Shown piece after piece: positions 1 to 49,830 of a stretch of DNA of 64,000 bases. Below the pieces are notes generated by a model, which worked only from the letters and a program-made list of their open reading frames with translations, was not told where the DNA came from and did no database searches. How positions within the stretch are numbered: position 1 is the first letter of the stretch; the number at the start of each line of letters is the position of its first letter. The DNA is from Opitutales bacterium. GTDB taxonomy: Bacteria; Verrucomicrobiota; Verrucomicrobiia; Opitutales; PNEW01. The stretch covers positions 800,001 to 864,000 of the forward strand of contig CBDANS010000007.1 of the NCBI GenBank assembly GCA_965197745.1, given 5' to 3'. The position numbers and the translations under genes are program-made.

Positions 1-234
1 CTTTTAAAGCCTAAACGACTGTGGGGATGATCATGGTTATAGGTCTGGCGCCATTGTTCGATTACAACTTGTGCTTCAGCCACGCTGAGCAACACTTCAC
101 GGTTCAAACACTCATCGCGTAAGCGGTTGTGAAACGACTCGATGAAACCGTTTTGCCAGGGACTGCCCGGATCGATATATATCGCCTTGATCTTTTTGTC
201 GGACAACGACTGCTGCACTTGATGAGCAATGAAT

Positions 235-266
235 GGCTTCGCATGTCGTCGCTTCGCTCCTCGGAA
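235..266 (-). mobile_element. 32-nt hairpin micro-insertion (TWCCGAR family) in the DNGS-E-F codon of IS copy 1
   Basis: AGT G[TTCCGAGGAGCGAAGCGACGACATGCGAAGCC]A TTC where AGT GAA TTC is expected. Confidence 0.85.
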
Positions 267-394
267 CACTGCCGTTGTCACTACGGATATAGCTGGGAGC
301 TCCCTCCTTTTCAATGGCCTCGCTAAGCACAGAGAGGACATCCGATGAGGGGAGTTCACGAGCGACCCGGATATCCAGACATTCACGCGTATAT

Positions 395-437
395 GGCTTC
401 GCTTCGCTTGAGTGTCGTCGCTTTCAGCTCCTCGGTA
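395..437 (-). mobile_element. 43-nt hairpin micro-insertion (TWCCGAR family) in the ID-E-Y codon of IS copy 1
   Basis: GAT G[TACCGAGGAGCTGAAAGCGACGACACTCAAGCGAAGCGAAGCC]A TAT; IS copy 3 has uninterrupted GAT GAG TAC here. Confidence 0.85.
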
Positions 438-866
438 CATCGATCAGAGTCATCATCTTTAATGGACCGCCATGGTCTGTGCGATCATGGACAAAGTCCC
501 AGGACCAAAGGTGATTGCGACCGGTTGCTTTAGTAGGCGACCCCGTAGAGACCCCTTGACGGTGTCTACGCTTTTTAGGTGGCTTTACCTGCAACCCTTC
601 TGAACGTCGTACCGCCTGAACAAACTTCCTGTTTGTTGTCCAGCCTTCCTTTACGAGCAAGGCACGGATGCGCCGGTAACCGTAGCAGGGATGTTCCCAG
701 GACAGGGTTATAATCCGCTCGGCCAACCGCTGAGCTTTCTTACTGGCCTGCTTGGGCTGGTAGCTGAAAGTTGACCAACTGAGGCTGAGGTAGGAACAAG
801 CCCTTCGCAACGAGCACAGCCCTCTCTCAGCCGCATCTTTTACTACTCGCTTCTTCTGCTTGGGGC

Positions 867-1133
867 TCACCACTTTTTTGACAGCGTTTCCTCCATTACC
901 TGATTCTTAAGCATTTGATCAGCGAGCATCTTCTTCAACTCGGTGTTTTCTTTTTCCAGCTCTTTAAATCGCTTCGCATCGGCTAGTTCCAAATTGCCAT
1001 ACTTTTTACCCCAGCGATAGAAGGTCTGTTCACTCACGTTGTTGCCTCGGCAGATTTCCTCTACCGTTTTTCCGGTATCGGCTTGCCGCAGTATTGCGAT
1101 GATCTGTTCTGTTGTGTATCTTTTTCTTTTCAT
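867..1133 (-). CDS. IS3 transposase OrfA (HTH)
   Basis: MKRKRYTTEQII...SEQTFYRW...LKKMLAD; ends at the A6G frameshift window overlapping orfB. Confidence 0.93.
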   Translation of the reverse strand: MKRKRYTTEQIIAILRQADTGKTVEEICRGNNVSEQTFYRWGKKYGNLELADAKRFKELEKENTELKKMLADQMLKNQVMEETLSKKW

Positions 1134-16015: not shown

Positions 16016-16345
16016 CGGCCACGACGACGCGTAGCCCTCCAGAATGAGAACAAATGGGAGGGCCTCGCGTTGTCGTGGCCGTGGTTTAAATATTTAAAAC
16101 AAGAGAATGAATAATTAATTATTACAGAAAGAGGATAGTTTGGAGGGATGCGTATAGCCTGTCGCCCATAGTCCCGCGGATGCGGGACGACGGCTGGTCG
16201 TGTCCGCTTAGGTGCATGAATTTACTGCAGGTAGCTAATTACTGGATAAAAATTATACTCATTGTCCTTTCATTTTGTGCTTCTTGTGCCTCTTGTGGCT
16301 ATCTTAATCGAGGATGAAGACGAAGAGGCAGACGAAGACGAAGAT
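16016..16345. repeat. Composite intergenic repeat: REP-like pair, REP with nested insert, TTGTGCC/GTGGCT repeat (empty allele), GACGAAG array
   Basis: Collinear similarity with 23665..23962 and 26868..27102. Confidence 0.85.
16158..16197 (+). mobile_element. 40-nt CCTGTC...GCTGG micro-insertion in a REP loop
   Basis: GGAGGGATGCGT ATAG[insert]TCGTGTCC versus empty GGAGGGACGCGC GTCG TCGCGTCC. Confidence 0.75.
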
Positions 16346-16355
16346 AAATAGAATA

Positions 16356-18077: not shown

Positions 18078-18296
18078 AGGCTACGATCTGCCTTCGTCTC
18101 CCCTCGCAGTCGCCGGAGGACTACGGCATGACAGGCAACGCGTGGCTGCTCCAAAAATGAATCTTACGGCCACAACAACGCGTGGCCCTCCAGAAAAAAT
18201 ATACACCCGGAGAGCCATGCGTCCTGGTGGCTGCTATATCTTTCTCTAAATCTTTTTCTTGTGTTTTATGTGCATTTTGTGCCTTTTGTGGCTATC
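18078..18296. repeat. REP-like cluster with a nested 49-nt insert (18087..18135) and an empty TTGTGCCTTTTGTGGCT repeat
   Basis: CGGCCACAACAACGCGTGGCCCTCC; the insert reads CCTGTCATGCCGTAG...GAAGGCAGA on the minus strand. Confidence 0.75.
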
Positions 18297-23664: not shown

Positions 23665-23962
23665 CATCGTCTTCGCCCATACCTGTCTAAATACTTAAAT
23701 TTATAGGTAGTATAATTAAGACTATTTTTCAAACTACCCAACAGACGCGACGACGCGCGTCCCTCCAGAAAAGAACAAATGGGAGGGCCACGCGTCGTCG
23801 TGGCCGCTTAGGAGAATGATCATACAATTGAGATAAATTTAAATAGGATAAAGATTATACTCAAGACACTTTCATTTTTGTGTATCTTGTGCTTTTGGAA
23901 GATGTCGCCCTGCTATTGCAGGACTCGGAAGTGGCTATCAAATCGTGGACGAAATCGAAGCT
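23665..23962. repeat. Composite intergenic repeat (REP pair plus TTGTGC/GTGGCT repeat carrying a micro-insertion)
   Basis: Collinear with 16016..16345, including the GGATAAARATTATACTCA spacer. Confidence 0.85.
23897..23930 (-). mobile_element. 34-nt TWCCGAR-family micro-insertion in an intergenic repeat
   Basis: TAGCCAC[TTCCGAGTCCTGCAATAGCAGGGCGACATCTTCC]AAAAGCAC versus empty TAGCCAC-A-AAAGGCAC. Confidence 0.8.
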
Positions 23963-23969
23963 TGACTGC

Positions 23970-24731
23970 TCAAACAAGCTTATCGTCAGCTGAATCCTGT
24001 GGCTCGAATCCGACAGTCTCGCGGGCGTGGGTGATGTCGCGGTAACTCCATTTGTTATTCGATACGCCGTAAAAAATATCGTATTTCAAACTTTCTGGTG
24101 CTTCGATGCATTTTTCTACTAATTGTGCAATGTCACGCTGGCTGCACCAGATTGCATTCTGTCTTGTTTGAAGGGGCCGATCTTCACGGTTAACTCCACC
24201 TATGCGCAGGCAGATGATGGAGAGGTCGGTGGTGTCAGTGAAATGACGTGCCAGAGCCTCACCCCAAACTTTGCTCGCTCCATAAAGACCAATAGGACGC
24301 GTAACTGATTCATGCGTCATCATCTCCCAGGAGTCAGGAGCTTCATCATAATTTCCTTCAGCAATCGCCTTATAGGGATTCTCTTTTTCCCAACCGGCAA
24401 TGGTCGCACCACTACTGGCTGATATAATACGTTTAACCCCGACCTGTCTTGACGCCTCAAAGACATTGTAGGTGCCAATTACATTAGCATTGTGAATTTT
24501 ATCCCAGGTTGCGCCTAATTTCGCGAATGCTGCCATATGAACTACGACATCTTGGCCTTCAAATGCCGGTCGTATCGCATCAAGGTCGGCAATATCAGCC
24601 TGGTGACATTTAACTCCAGGCACATCACTGCGGTTGAGCGCGCTGAGTTCATACTTGCCCTCTAATTGTTTACGCACAGCGCCACCGATGAGCCCGCTCA
24701 TTCCCGTTATCAATACACTTTTATTATTCAT
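23970..24731 (-). CDS. NAD-dependent epimerase/dehydratase (uronate dehydrogenase-like)
   Basis: TGMSGLIG, ASS, YGASK, CLRIG. Confidence 0.87.
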   Translation of the reverse strand: MNNKSVLITGMSGLIGGAVRKQLEGKYELSALNRSDVPGVKCHQADIADLDAIRPAFEGQDVVVHMAAFAKLGATWDKIHNANVIGTYNVFEASRQVGVKRIISASSGATIAGWEKENPYKAIAEGNYDEAPDSWEMMTHESVTRPIGLYGASKVWGEALARHFTDTTDLSIICLRIGGVNREDRPLQTRQNAIWCSQRDIAQLVEKCIEAPESLKYDIFYGVSNNKWSYRDITHARETVGFEPQDSADDKLV

Positions 24732-24778
24732 TTTCTTCTCCTTCAATCCCTTGATTTAAACCCCTTTGACCCTGTAAA

Positions 24779-26979: not shown

Positions 26980-27019
26980 TCGCGTCCGCTTAGGAGCATG
27001 ATTATAGGATAGGAGATAT

Positions 27020-27053
27020 GGAAGATGTCACCCTGCTGTTGCAGGGTTCGGAA
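27020..27053 (-). mobile_element. 34-nt TWCCGAR-family micro-insertion
   Basis: TAGCCAC[TTCCGAACCCTGCAACAGCAGGGTGACATCTTCC]ATAT; stem changes are compensatory relative to the 23897 copy. Confidence 0.78.
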
Positions 27054-27173
27054 GTGGCTATCAAATCGTGGATGAAGACGAAGAAACAGACGAAGACGAA
27101 GATTATTATTGATATCATTCCCATCCAATCATCCAGGCATCCATCCTTCCACTTTTGTGAATTTTGTGCCTTT

Positions 27174-27196
27174 GAAAGATCTCGCTACACTCGGTA
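27174..27196 (-). mobile_element. 23-nt minimal TWCCGAR-family micro-insertion
   Basis: TAGCCAC[TACCGAGTGTAGCGAGATCTTTC]AAAGGCACAAAA versus empty TAGCCAC-A-AAAGGCACAAAA. Confidence 0.75.
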
Positions 27197-27376
27197 GTGG
27201 CTATTCTAATCGAAGACGAAGACGAAGACGAGGAGGCAGACGAAGATACTAATTATTGCATAGCCCAAGAGGAATGGTGCGACCATCTGAAATTGTCAGA
27301 GTAGAGGAAAATTTCAAATCCGGGATATGTATCCTGAATCCGACTCGTGAATACAGCTGGTCCCTATCTTAACCCT

Positions 27377-36365: not shown

Positions 36366-36895
36366 CTATTCGGGGGCCAATTTCATATCACAGAACCAAT
36401 AGGCTAAGACCATTAATTAAGCAAATCCCTGATTGCGCAATGGCTGGATTTAATTCGGTGAATAAAGAAATAATAGAAACGGATCTTCCCACCCGTCGTT
36501 TAGGAAAGACCTGATCGGACCCCGTATTTCGTATCAAATTTTAAGTGAGAGAACTACCGGGTGTTAATGGTTTTAGGATTGATGTATATGAGAGATCTTG
36601 GCGCAGTGAGGGCGTAGCCCGAACGCGGCCAAGAGCGGAAAGGAATGTGACAAACTCTTGTGGGCTTTTAAAGCCTAATCGACTGTGGGGATGTTCATTG
36701 TTATAGGTCTGACGCCATTGTTCTATTAGCACTTGCGCTTCAGCCACGCTGAGCAACACTTCACGGTTCAAACACTCATCGCGTAAGCGGTTGTGAAACG
36801 ACTCGATGAAACCGTTCCAGGGACTGCCCGGATCGATATATATCGCCTTGATCTTTTTGTCGGACAACCACTGCTGCACCTGATGAGCAATGAAT

Positions 36896-36927
36896 GGCTT
36901 CGCATGTCGTCGCTTCGCTCCTCGGAA
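36896..36927 (-). mobile_element. 32-nt TWCCGAR micro-insertion in the DNGS-E-F codon of IS copy 2
   Basis: Identical to 235..266. Confidence 0.85.
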
Positions 36928-37055
36928 CACTGCCGTTGTCACTGCGGATATAGCTAGGAACTCCCTCTTCATCGATGGTTTCGCTGAGTACCGAGAGAAC
37001 ATCGGTTGAGGTGAGCTGTCGAGCTACCCGGATGCGTAAACATTTACGCGTATAT

Positions 37056-37098
37056 GTCTTCGCTTCGCTTGAGTGTCGTCGCTTTCAGCTCCTCGGTA
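37056..37098 (-). mobile_element. 43-nt TWCCGAR micro-insertion in the ID-E-Y codon of IS copy 2
   Basis: One substitution relative to 395..437. Confidence 0.85.
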
Positions 37099-37527
37099 CA
37101 TCGATCAAGGTCATCATCTTTAGCATACCGCCATTGTCTGTACGATCATGGACAAAGTCCCAGGACCAGACGTGATTGCGACCGGTTGCTTTAGTAGGGA
37201 GCCCAGTAGAGATCCCCTGACGGTGTCTACGCTTTTTTGGGGGCTTTACCTGTAAGCCCGAAGAACGTCGCACTGCCTGTACAAATTTCCTGCTTGCCGC
37301 CCAACCTTCTTTCACCAGCAAGGCACGAATGCGCCGGTAACCGTAACGGGGATGTTCCCAGGACAAGGTCAAAATCCGCTCGGCCAATTGCTGAGCCTTC
37401 TTACTGGCCTGCTTGGGTCGGTAGCTGTACGTTGACCAACTGAGGCTGAGATAAGCACAAGCCCTCTAAAACGAGCACAGCCCCTTCTCAGCCGCATCTT
37501 TTACTGCTCGCTTCTTCTGCTTTGGGC

Positions 37528-37794
37528 TCACCATTTTTTTGAGAGCGTTTCCTCCAACACCCGAAGCTTGAGCATTTGATCAGCGAGCATCTTCTTCAGC
37601 TCCGTATTCTCCTTTTCCAGCTCTTTAAATCGCTTCGCATCAGCCAGCTCCAAGTTGCCATACTTTTTGCCCCAGCGATAGAAGGTCTGTTCACTTAGGT
37701 TGTTGCCGTGGCAGACTTCCTGCACGGTTTTGCCCGTATCGGGCTGCCGCAGTATTGCTATGATCTGTTCTGTTGTATATCTTTTTCTTTTCAT
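37528..37794 (-). CDS. IS3 transposase OrfA
   Basis: Near-identical to 867..1133; A7 slippery site. Confidence 0.9.
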   Translation of the reverse strand: MKRKRYTTEQIIAILRQPDTGKTVQEVCHGNNLSEQTFYRWGKKYGNLELADAKRFKELEKENTELKKMLADQMLKLRVLEETLSKKW

Positions 37795-38794
37795 TGAGGT
37801 TATCTGTTTATCCCGATAACCTCTCTCTGTTAATGATACCATTTTTGGGGGTCACTCCATGCCGAATTATACCCGACGGTGCTCAGTCTCGGTGGGGTCC
37901 ATTTAGGAGGTGCGCAGAACGGTCTGGGTATAGAGGGTGATGATGAAAGGGCTGCGGACATGGTGGAAACTGCCTGTCGTTTGGGCATAACTCTTGTCGA
38001 TACTTCGCCCCTTTACGGAAGAAGTGAATACCGAGTCGGAATAGCATTAAAAAGAAATAAATTTTCCGACCTCATAATATCAACTAAAACGGGCACTCAT
38101 CCGGAACGTCAATACAGTTATTCTAATGAGGATCTTCGCTGGTCATTTAATAATAGTCTGCGCATGCTGGGCCGAATATGTGTGGATGTAGCAATGATCC
38201 ACGATCCACCCAGTATGCAACCTGTATTTAAGTCGGGTCATGGATTTGACACTATGGAGGAGCTGCGAAAAGAGGGTAAACTGCGTTATATTGGGCTCGG
38301 CGTTCGGGATCACTCATTTCACATTGAGGCCATCAAAGCGGGTAAAGTGGATGTCATTCTCACTTACGGAGATTTCAATCTAGTTCGAAGAACCGCGCGT
38401 TCTCTTATTGACATGGCCTACAATGAAGGGGTGGGAGTATTTCTCGGTTCACCTCAAATGCTTGGACTGCTTGCTCGTGGTGAGCCCGCACATGTTGCGA
38501 AGGAACAATTAAATCTTACTAATTGGTTTAATGATGGGGATTTTAAAACAGCTCAGGAGTGGTGGTTGTGGTGTCGCGAGCGTGATATACAACTCAGGCA
38601 TTTGAACATGCGTTATATCATGAATAATCCCAAAATAGGATGTGTTCTCACGGGGGGGGGCGACAGTAGAAGAATTAGAACAAAATATTCACGAGGCACT
38701 GACACCAATTCCAAAAGATATATGGAATGAAGCAATGGAGAGGATTGTCATGCTGGATGAAAAAGCTTCGCGCTGAAATGACAAGAAACACATA

Positions 38795-42489: not shown

Positions 42490-42739
42490 ATCTTTAATTG
42501 TTAGAACAGTTTCATCACATAATATAATTTATAAAAATTTAGTCAACGCATCTCATTGTGACTTCATAAATAACTTGTAGTATGTTGAAAAACAACATTT
42601 TATAAATATCAGAAAAAGGTGATGATGACCTTGCTTAAAGTAGGTTATATTAATAGTGCAGGGTGGACGCAGTGGTCGTGACCACGAAAACTGGTCCACT
42701 TGAAAAGTTAGTCTGGTCCAACTAGAAAGGACACAGACA

Positions 42740-43006
42740 ATGAAAGGCAAAAGATACACGACCGAAGAGAAAATACGGATGCTGCGCCAGGCGGACAAAG
42801 GGAAAACGATCCTGGAAGCATGCCGCGAGAACAACATAAGCGAACAGACCTTCCACCGCTGGAAACGTGAGTTTGGGATGATTGATGTCAACCAGGCCAA
42901 GCGGATGAAGGAGCTCGAGAAGGAGAACGCGCGGTTAAAACGGATGCTGGCGGACAAGATGCTGGGGATAGAGATCCTGCAGGAGACCCTCGAAAAAAAA
43001 CTGTAA
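42740..43006 (+). CDS. IS3 transposase OrfA
   Basis: MKGKRYTTEE...SEQTFHRW...ENARLKRMLAD; A8 slippery site. Confidence 0.93.
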   Translation: MKGKRYTTEEKIRMLRQADKGKTILEACRENNISEQTFHRWKREFGMIDVNQAKRMKELEKENARLKRMLADKMLGIEILQETLEKKL

Positions 43007-43981
43007 GCCCTGGGCACAAGCGGCAAGTGGCAGAGAGACTTGTGACTCGGGGCCAGTGTTCGATGCGAGCGGGGTGCCGGTACTTTCGGCTGCACCGTTC
43101 CACCTATGCGTATAGGGCCAAGCATCCGGATGCCTGGCTAACGAAACTAAAAGCGGCAGTAAGGCGGTTATCACGGCAATACGCGAGGTGGGGCTATCCC
43201 AAGATCACGAAGCTGTTGAAGGACGAAGGCTGGCAGGTGGGTAAACGTCTCGTGCAAGGTCTGCGACGTGAACTGGGTCTGGCGATCCCCCCACGCAAGC
43301 CAAGACGCCGGCGCAGGGGTGTCTGCACCGGGCTACCGACAAAGGCCGAACATCCCGACCATGTTTGGACCTGGGATTTTATCCACGATAAGACGGTTCG
43401 CGGCGGCAGTCTAAAAATGCTGACCGTGCTCGATGAGTACACCCGCGAGTGCCGGGTGATCCATGTTGATCGCCATATCAATGCGGAAACGGTGCGCGGT
43501 ATCATGCAAAAACTGCTCGACCGGCATGGGCCGCCAAAATATATTCGTAGCGACAACGGTTCCGTTCCGAGGAGCGAAGCGACGACATGCAAAGCCATTC
43601 ATTGAAAGCCAATTGAGAGCCTGGCTAACTGCGATGAAAATCAAAACCCTCTATATCGAACCAGCAAGCCCTTGGCAGAACGGATACATTGAATCGTTCC
43701 ATGCCCGTTTTCGCGAGGAGTGTTTAAACCGTGAACAGTTATGGACTTTGACCGAAGCCCGCGTGGTCATCGAAGATTGGCGCTGGCTTTACAATCATGT
43801 CCGACCCCACCGCAGCCTCGGCAACATCACTCCACGGCACTTCACTGAAAACCTCAATACCGAAGGCTCGGGCTCCATTCGGGCTACGCCCTCATTGCGC
43901 CCAAGCCTTGACTTCCTCTACCAACTTAACTTCAACATTAACCTCTCCAGACTAACTCTCCCGGTGGACCAGTTTGTGTAA
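43003..43981 (+). pseudogene. IS3 OrfB frameshifted only by a 32-nt micro-insertion
   Basis: WTWDF, VLDEYTREC, SDNGS[insert]FIE, PWQNGYIESF; no other lesion seen. Confidence 0.85.
43565..43596 (+). mobile_element. 32-nt TWCCGAR micro-insertion in the DNGS-E-F codon of IS copy 3
   Basis: TCC G[TTCCGAGGAGCGAAGCGACGACATGCAAAGCC]A TTC; 31/32 identical to the insert in copies 1 and 2. Confidence 0.85.
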
Positions 43982-44085
43982 CCCGACCAGCAGAGACAGT
44001 GACGTCGAGCCAAGGGGGCTGGATCTTGACAATAACTATCGGCCTCTATTTTGTGCCGCTGTGCGAAAGTTTGATTATTAACGCC

Positions 44086-49631: not shown

Positions 49632-49830
49632 TAGCCCCTGAGGGGCGACATAAACTTAGCCCATTGCGTGAGCAATGGGTATTAGAATTACCCAACACCT
49701 AGAGCCCCGGAGGGGCGACACAACCTATCTTCCGACAGTAATTGAGTCGCCCCTCCGGGGCTACTTTTTATAATTATATTATTTTCCACAGCTTGCGCTG
49801 TGGTTTATGATTGTGTCACCCTTCAAGGGT
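49632..49830. repeat. BIME-like cluster of a second REP type (AGCCCCNNAGGGGCGAC) in direct and inverted copies
   Basis: AGCCCCTGAGGGGCGACA, AGCCCCGGAGGGGCGACA, GTCGCCCCTCCGGGGCT with spacer hairpins. Confidence 0.78.

Follow-up and report, generated by a model that had tools for sequence, protein, structure and literature searches.

The 34 bases at positions 23897..23930 (minus strand) of the analysed DNA are a copy of a lineage-restricted family of micro-elements. The members of this family have a covarying stem between constant ends and occupy sites for which empty paralogous versions exist, and a comparison of the filled and empty sites reveals a footprint of minus one, i.e. the net loss of one nucleotide. 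In kind, the element resembles a miniature repeat of the REP/SDR type, and its footprint is well documented. On balance, and with modest confidence, we consider the focal copy to be a member of a non-autonomous, REP/SDR-like family of DNA micro-elements that is moved in trans.

The window, i.e. the whole stretch of 64 kb that was analysed, corresponds to G000:C7:800001-864000, where G000 is the source genome (4.45 Mb in 7 contigs). The set used for genome comparison comprised 21 Opitutales genomes, four of which (G000, G001, G002 and G015) carry the element. On the minus strand, from 23930 to 23897, the focal copy and its flanks read TAGCCAC[TTCCGAG-TCCTGC-AATA-GCAGGG-CGACAT-CTTCC]AAAAGCAC, as quoted in the original prediction, and the two empty TAGCCAC repeats that it had set beside this site were recovered as well. 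The relevant features of the window are the following (R1 is the covariance model described below).

23897..23930, minus strand: focal micro-element, 34 nt (R1 27.3 bits, E 0.0013; DNA fold -5.9 kcal/mol)
23930-23924, minus strand: 5' arm of the focal element, TTCCGAG
23924-23907, minus strand: stem-loop of the focal element, 7 bp with an AATA loop
23907-23902, minus strand: CGACAT of the focal element
23901-23897, minus strand: tail of the focal element, CTTCC
23931..23937, minus strand: left flank of the host repeat, TAGCCAC
23889..23896, minus strand: first host unit after the focal element, AAAAGCAC, 8 nt versus 9 nt in the empty counterparts (AAAAAGCAC)
16286-16301, minus strand: empty host repeat TAGCCAC-AAGAGGCAC (in full TAGCCACAAGAGGCAC)
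18279-18294, minus strand: empty host repeat TAGCCAC-AAAAGGCAC (in full TAGCCACAAAAGGCAC)
27020-27053, minus strand: paralogue of 34 nt within the same host repeat (R1 E 0.0072; -8.2 kcal/mol, z -4.1)
27174-27196, minus strand: short-class copy of 23 nt, TAGCCAC[TACCGAGTGTAGCGAGATCTTTC]AAAGGCAC (R1 E 0.027; no stable fold predicted)

The focal element sits 40 nt past the stop of the ORF at 23970..24746. As single-stranded DNA its predicted 7-bp hairpin has a z-score of -2.47, and 4 out of 200 shuffles fold as well; the closing pair is G-C in the focal copy and A-T in the paralogue at 27020. The pattern TTCCGAG N8-36 CGACAT has four matches in the window where 0.04 are expected, a number reached by none of 100 shuffles, and the three matches besides the focal copy are inserts in IS3 elements (see below).

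All three window copies of the element with the TAGCCAC host lie within one composite module, and the focal copy would be a fixed passenger in this composite intergenic repeat. The module recurs at 16250-16350, 23820-23960 and 27000-27260 (minus strand) and consists, in this order, of CTTCGTC-type heptamers, GATAGCCAC, 9-nt units of the AAAAGGCAC type, a -10-like box (GAGTATAAT), CCTAAGCGG and a GC-rich hairpin. It may represent a portable promoter or terminator cassette.

In Logan contigs (4 runs, 3 studies), which hide rare variants, the focal locus carries the filled allele in all runs and an empty allele was seen in none; the sole length variant nearby is the deletion of a 9-nt unit at 16282, in one run. 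An orthologous empty site was not found in G001 or G002, the spacers of which (136 and 133 nt) cannot be aligned with the focal spacer of 358 nt. The orthologous spacer of G002 (G002:C1, ~1187334-1187466) contains another small hairpin module with different arms (…GTAGTCC-TCCCGC-GAAT-GCGGGA-CGAAGACATGG…), and there seem to be several families with this design that differ in their arms. Rfam gave no match at the focal element. Elsewhere in the window, at 49633-49679 (minus strand), an Acido-Lenti-1 RNA motif (RF01687) scores 43.6 bits versus a gathering score of 37, and it is adjoined by a long perfect hairpin at ~49700-49765.

Distribution and structure of the family

A strict regular expression finds 92 copies of the element in the source genome. 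The exact pattern TACCGAG N4-24 CGACATCTTCC occurs 42, 66, 84 and 6 times in G000, G001, G002 and G015, respectively, and not once in the other 17 Opitutales genomes; its reversed control is absent from all 21. The covariance model R1 was built from 24 distinct copies of G000 and applied with 150 candidates scored per genome. At E<=0.01 it gives 50, 68, 82 and 7 matches in the same four genomes and none in the remaining 17 of 21. The copies at 27020-27053 and 27174-27196 of the window were missed by the regular expression and recovered with this model.

Two parts of the element are constant: a 5' arm of 7 nt, T(A/T)CCGAG, and a 3' arm of 11 nt that is composed of CGACAT and a pyrimidine tail (mostly CTTCC). 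The interior comes in three size classes, which bring the total to 23, 27 or 34 nt, and the lengths range from 23-34 nt in intergenic regions and from 24-43 nt inside IS elements. Within the 24 distinct copies, the four pairs adjacent to the arms are formed in 97.3% of the cells, versus 71.3 +/- 4.0 in shuffled sets (a level that 0 out of 500 reach) and 26-49% in slid controls. Moreover, 16 cells show a double change versus 4.7 in the shuffles. The stem is thus maintained via compensatory changes, and the sequence of both loop and stem is free. The proposal of one family with conserved ends and an exchangeable hairpin is borne out by this pairing and by the presence of matches in 4 of 21 genomes.

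In the classes with hairpins of 5 and 9 nt, GCA, GAA and GTA make up 41 of the 59 triloops, and we take these to be the unusually stable GNA mini-hairpins of DNA. Their prevalence is a hint that the element acts as single-stranded DNA and not as RNA. No stable hairpin is predicted for the short class and for the inserts in IS elements, a prediction in which the nearest-neighbour model may underrate GNA loops.

Most of the strict copies of the source genome (80 out of 92) lie outside ORFs of at least 150 aa. Singlets predominate (75 of the 92), and the 9 pairs of neighbours within 300 nt are all inverted. When GC skew was used as a guide to the replication strand, no bias in the orientation of the copies was found: the two orientations have 28 and 25 copies in G>C regions and 16 and 17 in C>G regions. 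A phage origin was considered and rejected, as none of the 21 pattern matches in viral contigs reaches a stem of 3 bp; they are chance matches. A pattern scan over all species gave at least 103 matches; most of those listed are single chance matches, and among the matches listed seven were judged real on account of hairpin and flanks, all of them in records titled Opitutales.

The one-base deficit at filled sites

The clearest view of the insertion footprint is offered by the host repeat of the focal copy. Throughout the genome, the first unit of the empty [AT]AGCCAC repeats measures 9 nt in 20 out of 20 cases (A4GGCAC 5, A5GCAC 9, A4TGCAC 2, AAGA[A/G]GCAC 4), whereas that of the filled repeats measures 8 nt in 13 out of 13 (A3GGCAC 9, A3GTCAC 1, A4GCAC 3, focal copy included). 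The subtypes pair up, A4GGCAC (5) with A3GGCAC (9) and A5GCAC (9) with A4GCAC (3). The filled site is therefore one base short, as originally predicted, and the variation by one base among empty repeats that would have undermined this reading is not seen. The same footprint recurs at sites inside IS3 elements, where empty and filled copies can be aligned.

IS3 site B: 7 empty and 30 filled of 37 aligned copies; net +42 for an insert of 43 nt
IS3 site A: 3 empty and 34 filled of 37 aligned copies; net +31 for 32 nt
IS3 site C: 26 empty and 11 filled of 37 aligned copies; net +42 for 43 nt
IS3 site D: 28 empty, 8 filled and 1 truncated of 37 aligned copies; net +35 for 36 nt
Frameshift window of a second IS3 lineage: 35 empty (CTTAC-AG-T8 33, CTTAC-CG-T8 2) and 7 filled (CTTAC[24 nt]A-T8); net -1

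In addition, three genomes have heptamer arrays with one A missing after the element, namely arrays of AACCCTG in G000 and G001 and one of AATGGTG in G015. A mimic of the tRNA 3' end reads GGTTCG[insert]ATCC versus GGTTCGAATCC in the neighbouring true tRNAs, and if these are taken as the empty state, the T-loop mimic would carry the footprint of minus one as well. Altogether, the net change is minus one in nine classes of site with observed empty counterparts, and probably in the tRNA mimic as the tenth. At the joint, only a G or C is conserved before the insertion point and AA(W) after it.

The target (G/C)AA(A/T) with the loss of one base, as first proposed, thus holds for nine site classes and not for all. 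The exception is the REP-like host repeat ATTGCGAG-hairpin-GACGAAGC^AATCCAGG, with 44 empty and 27 filled copies and a net change of 0. Its filled form reads ...GC[element]A(T/C/A)TCCAGG, with T in 24 copies, C in 2 and A in 1, so that an A to T/C substitution lies beside the joint. Furthermore, the empty form reads AG instead of AA at two sites. At these sites, the missing base is a G unless the element extends to ...CCA and takes the place of two bases, as in the alternative boundary that the original prediction had allowed for.

The one-base deficit itself is robust, and we know of no transposition mechanism that predicts the replacement of one base. The footprint rules out the outcomes of textbook DDE transposition (duplication) and of textbook IS200/IS605 transposition (no change). 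A differently working HUH-like enzyme, or a route via a nick and a gap, may be compatible with it. The earlier claim that the insertion fits neither DDE transposition nor clean HUH insertion is upheld by the lack of target duplication and of inverted terminal repeats other than the hairpin and by the loss of one base; with respect to HUH it extends to the textbook footprint, and HUH-type agents in general fall outside it.

Inserts in IS3 transposase genes and putative tRNA mimics

The genes of IS3 elements carry up to four inserts, at the conserved codons LIDEYTRE, SDNGSEF, PWQNG and RDECLN. Copies with inserts are found in the window at 36541-37900 (minus strand), 1-900 (minus strand) and 42700-43990 (plus strand), and ~70 more are found in G000. 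The inserts located in the window are the following.

36896..36927, minus strand: insert A, 32 nt (net +31), at G^AATTC in the SDNGSEF codons
37056..37098, minus strand: insert B, 43 nt (net +42) with an in-frame TGA, at G^AATAT in the LIDEYTRE codons
235..266, minus strand: insert A in a second IS3 copy
395..437, minus strand: insert B in the second IS3 copy
43565..43596, plus strand: insert A in a different IS3 lineage, the flanks of which are only 72-75% identical

The kinship of these inserts to the intergenic family depends on the measure that is used. The original prediction had looked to a significant covariance model as the link between the two, and by that measure the link fails: of the models built from intergenic copies, R1 gave no insert at E<=10, and a core model (R2) placed them at the correct coordinates with only 8.6-10.7 bits (E ~2-6). 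Yet six inserts that were defined by alignment or context (the four in ORFs, the one in the frameshift window and the one in the tRNA mimic) all begin with T(A/T)CCGAG, for which the chance is 1.2e-4 each. They have CGACA(T/C) 5-13 nt beyond this start, and share the S^A-R joint and the footprint of minus one. Because these identical ends lie at boundaries that were set independently, by alignment to empty paralogues, we regard the IS inserts as probable extended-tail relatives of the intergenic element; the common ends proposed at the outset are retained, and statistical significance in the models is not.

Comparable inserts occur downstream of tRNA genes. At G000:C6:355000-356200 (L125 500-700) and G000:C5:236000-237100 (L126 510-615), one or two units of ~95 nt lie just downstream of intact genes for tRNA-Asn and tRNA-Gln. 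Each unit repeats the last ~18 nt of the tRNA (ATCC..GGGCAGCCA) with the inverted complement ahead of it, and contains an element-like insert of 38-40 nt in the T-loop-like GGTTCG^A^ATCC. These units may be mimics of the tRNA 3' end.

Inserts A (+31) and D (+35) shift the reading frame of the transposase gene, B carries a TGA and D a TAG, and only C is open in frame. The copies in IS3 could resemble introns or IESs: they would be cut from the DNA or RNA, or else the ribosome would skip them or read through them, such that a working transposase is made. The conserved ends would then be recognition signals, and the intergenic copies would lie at sites where removal is irrelevant. We consider this quite improbable. 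In its favour, orfB, once the inserts are masked with an N at the joint, runs for 284 codons without interruption in most of the 37 copies. Its dN/dS between IS3 lineages is 0.11-0.31, and the two lineages that carry both B and A differ with a dS of 0.384 and a dN of 0.055 (ratio 0.144). None of the 37 copies of G000 is free of inserts, and 14 copies with at least 98.8% identity all have B and A. G002 contains at least 36 near-identical IS3 matches, of which the 13 sampled carry insert B only; in both copies examined (L137 and L141) the in-frame TGA of the insert is the sole defect of orfB. Moreover, the inserts vary far less than synonymous sites, with no more than one difference in 75 nt at a dS of 0.38, and the four ORF inserts are all in the sense direction. 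On the other hand, excision at the ends of the element would leave the gene one base short and would not restore the wild-type codon. Inspection of the frame-shifting inserts A and D revealed neither a slippery site nor a matching context of take-off and stop, and the fifth IS site is antisense. Recent and efficient site-specific insertion into every copy would explain the conservation, too. Genome-wide, insert A occupies 71 sites in at least five IS3 lineages, and the surviving empty A sites read mostly GAG, not GAA. Ribosomal hopping or frameshifting over A and B was rejected by inspection: the codon pairs match (AGC..AGC in B, GCG..GCG in A), a stop is found by the take-off codon only in B, and a slippery site is lacking. 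The single insert-free copy, in G001, is damaged otherwise. Hence, expression of the IS3 genes would have to neutralise the inserts, unless these home very efficiently into every copy. Transposase genes are preferred targets of the family, and the IS3 lineages have multiplied under purifying selection despite frame-breaking inserts, which would imply a new layer of transposase control or extremely efficient homing.

Mode of spread, candidate enzymes and known systems

That the element has no mobility of its own, and was carried along by the amplification and gene conversion of larger repeats (IS3, heptamer modules and the REP-like repeat) after a few old events, appears rather unlikely. Such a history would agree with the way in which the hairpin class follows the class of the host (short 24/40 in the REP-like host, medium 25/39 in 'other/heptamer' hosts), with the single composite module that holds all three window copies, with IS copies that carry their inserts along, and with the lack of polymorphism across the contigs of 3 studies. 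It is at odds, however, with the filling of at least ten unrelated classes of site, including five positions in two IS3 lineages and the tRNA mimic, and with the presence of at least two hairpin classes in every host class. Likewise, the inserts have a mosaic distribution on the IS tree, and their combinations vary with the genome (BA, BACD, AC, CD, AD, B only, A only, D only, none), and insert A is identical where the IS flanks are only 72-75% identical, with immediately adjacent flanks that are lineage-specific. Nevertheless, considering that hairpin class tracks host and that the window copies share a module, part of the copy number may be due to co-amplification with the hosts. An origin as a by-product of repair or replication is highly doubtful. 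In that case, an abundant hairpin oligonucleotide or an ectopic template would serve to fill a one-nucleotide gap or nick at S-A-R, by copying or by ligation (templated insertion), without any dedicated transposase. The replacement of exactly one nucleotide, the lack of both target duplication and strand bias, and the failure to find a cognate enzyme next to any copy of the element are in line with this, but the conserved ends of 7 and 11 nt, the discrete sizes (23, 27 or 34 nt) and the confinement of the element to 4 of 21 genomes argue for specific recognition, and we know of no source of free element DNA.

Mobilisation in trans is the favoured reading. A trans-acting enzyme would recognise the arms and the hairpin, probably on single-stranded DNA, and the element would be joined into (G/C)^A-R sites in either orientation with the displacement of one target nucleotide; equivalently, an element ending in ...CCA would replace two target bases. 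The enzymatic nature of the mobility, the single-stranded substrate and the identity of the enzyme are all putative here. A bolder version, to which we attach little weight, holds that a micro-element of ~25-40 nt integrates by single-nucleotide replacement at (G/C)^A-R by neither DDE nor canonical HUH chemistry, and thus in an undescribed way of moving bacterial DNA, and that the IS3 copies are tolerated through removal or read-through, as a counterpart of tiny introns or IESs that throttles transposase output.

One gene for a Y1/HUH enzyme was found in G000. It is RAYT-like (NF047646 66 bits, with a cut-off of 80; PF01797 50.7 bits), and it is frameshifted: at G000:C6:163149-163742 (L010) it is split by a one-base deletion (between …VLHC and NDWLYDLG…) relative to G001, where it is intact and encodes 341 aa. 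Homologues with 60-93% identity are present in all four carrier genomes, and weaker ones in 7 non-carriers. No copy of the element was found within ~1.5 kb of the Y1 genes at 6 loci; the RAYT-like gene of G001 is immediately preceded by an arm of the REP-like host repeat (L011, ~1418). The RAYT-like Y1 transposase is accordingly a weak candidate for moving the element, possible rather than probable. A reverse transcriptase of the RVT_1 type (PF00078) was not detected in G000, while control genomes gave matches, and a search for Y2/IS91 enzymes gave no match in G000 and none in the control genomes either. No autonomous parent emerged: where CGACATCTTCC occurs with no 5' arm nearby, the copy is degenerate and does not mark the end of a long element.

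The element resembles a REP/SDR-type miniature repeat, yet lacks the defining features of the REP/RAYT, IS200/IS605 and MITE systems. To our knowledge, no insertion footprint of minus one has been reported for REPs. REPs and REPINs are described (PMC3116915, PMC2817692, PMC3733652) as short hairpin repeats that are mobilised by RAYT (Y1 HUH) transposases. Like these, the element is a non-autonomous hairpin repeat of 20-40 nt with ~100 copies per genome, mostly extragenic and sometimes in genes, with a conserved unpaired tag and a RAYT-like gene in its carrier genomes. It is also a covarying imperfect palindrome, with 50-82 copies per genome and the extragenic bias noted above. In contrast to REPs, it has no GTAG/CGTC tag, its arms being TACCGAG and CGACATCTTCC, although next to the stem its other strand reads TGTC, a variant that PMC3733652 mentions. 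Furthermore, its stems of 2-7 bp are unlike those of REPs, inverted doublets are not usual as they are in REPINs (75 of 92 copies are singlets, with 9 inverted pairs), and the Y1 gene scores below its cut-off and is not flanked by the element.

Our literature searches on REPs, Verrucomicrobia and Opitutales and by sequence words of the element yielded no description of it; Elhai et al. 2008, who reportedly dealt with small dispersed repeats (SDR) of Nostocaceae, stands outside this comparison. SDRs are portrayed (PMC5861425, PMC13756078, PMC4390886) as very small dispersed modules (~21 nt and up) that are inserted precisely and at fixed positions in other short repeats, that occur in Nostocaceae only, and for which mechanism and function are still unknown. 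Compared by description (PMC4390886, PMC13756078), the modules of ~21-27 nt, which also occupy heptamer arrays, parallel our element of 23-34 nt in AACCCTG, AATGGTG and 9-nt-unit arrays. The hosts are of different phyla, Opitutales versus Nostocaceae. By description, the SDRs appear to be the nearest precedent. For decades, no mechanism has been generally accepted for the spread of very small dispersed repeats such as REPs without a transposase and the cyanobacterial SDRs. The present family offers an unusually clean handle on this problem, with many pairs of filled and empty sites per genome, a fixed footprint of minus one, sharp arms and a free interior, and with three near-complete carrier genomes and a short list of candidate enzymes at hand.

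A superfamily of CGTC-tagged REPs without a dedicated transposase has stems of 8-9 bp, loops of 4-5 nt and CCA tails, according to Di Nocera et al. 2013 (PMC3733652). The REP-like host repeat ATTGCGAG-hairpin-GACGAAGC is similar in that CGTC lies at the foot of its stem on the other strand and no flanking transposase was found. The arms, stem length and tails of the repeats described here differ from those of the superfamily. The layout of the micro-element, xCGAG-hairpin-CGACx, is also that of the REP-like host. This repeat (TTGTCATTGCGAG-hairpin-GACGAAGC-AATCCAGG...) has ~75 copies genome-wide, e.g. at G000:C6:123731 and in repeats adjacent to the window, and is the commonest host of the micro-element.

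Elements of the IS200/IS605 family integrate without loss on the 3' side of a tetra- or pentanucleotide of fixed sequence, need a hairpin at either end and favour the template of the lagging strand. A hairpin-dependent, single-strand logic as in their mini-derivatives is plausible for our element, which likewise has neither target duplication nor terminal inverted repeats. Unlike them, it has only a G or C fixed before the joint, loses one base, contains one hairpin and shows no strand bias. It also differs from DDE-type MITEs, in that its ends TACCGAG and CTTCC are not inverted repeats and the filled sites are one base short rather than duplicated. Finally, the palindromic elements of Rickettsia are 100 nt or longer and are found inside protein-coding genes, in frame and translated. 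They share with the IS3 inserts the occurrence of small palindromic repeats in coding sequence, but of the four ORF inserts only C is in frame without a stop.

IS110 elements were considered as a source and rejected, because the ends of four copies are unrelated to the element and the copies sit in CTTCGTC heptamers. These four identical IS110-family copies, at G000:C5:450796-451230, C7:658515-658949, C7:1406596-1407030 and C7:2015553-2015987, each lie within CTTCGTC/TGCCTCT heptamer arrays, which points to sequence-specific targeting of these repeats by the IS110 copies.
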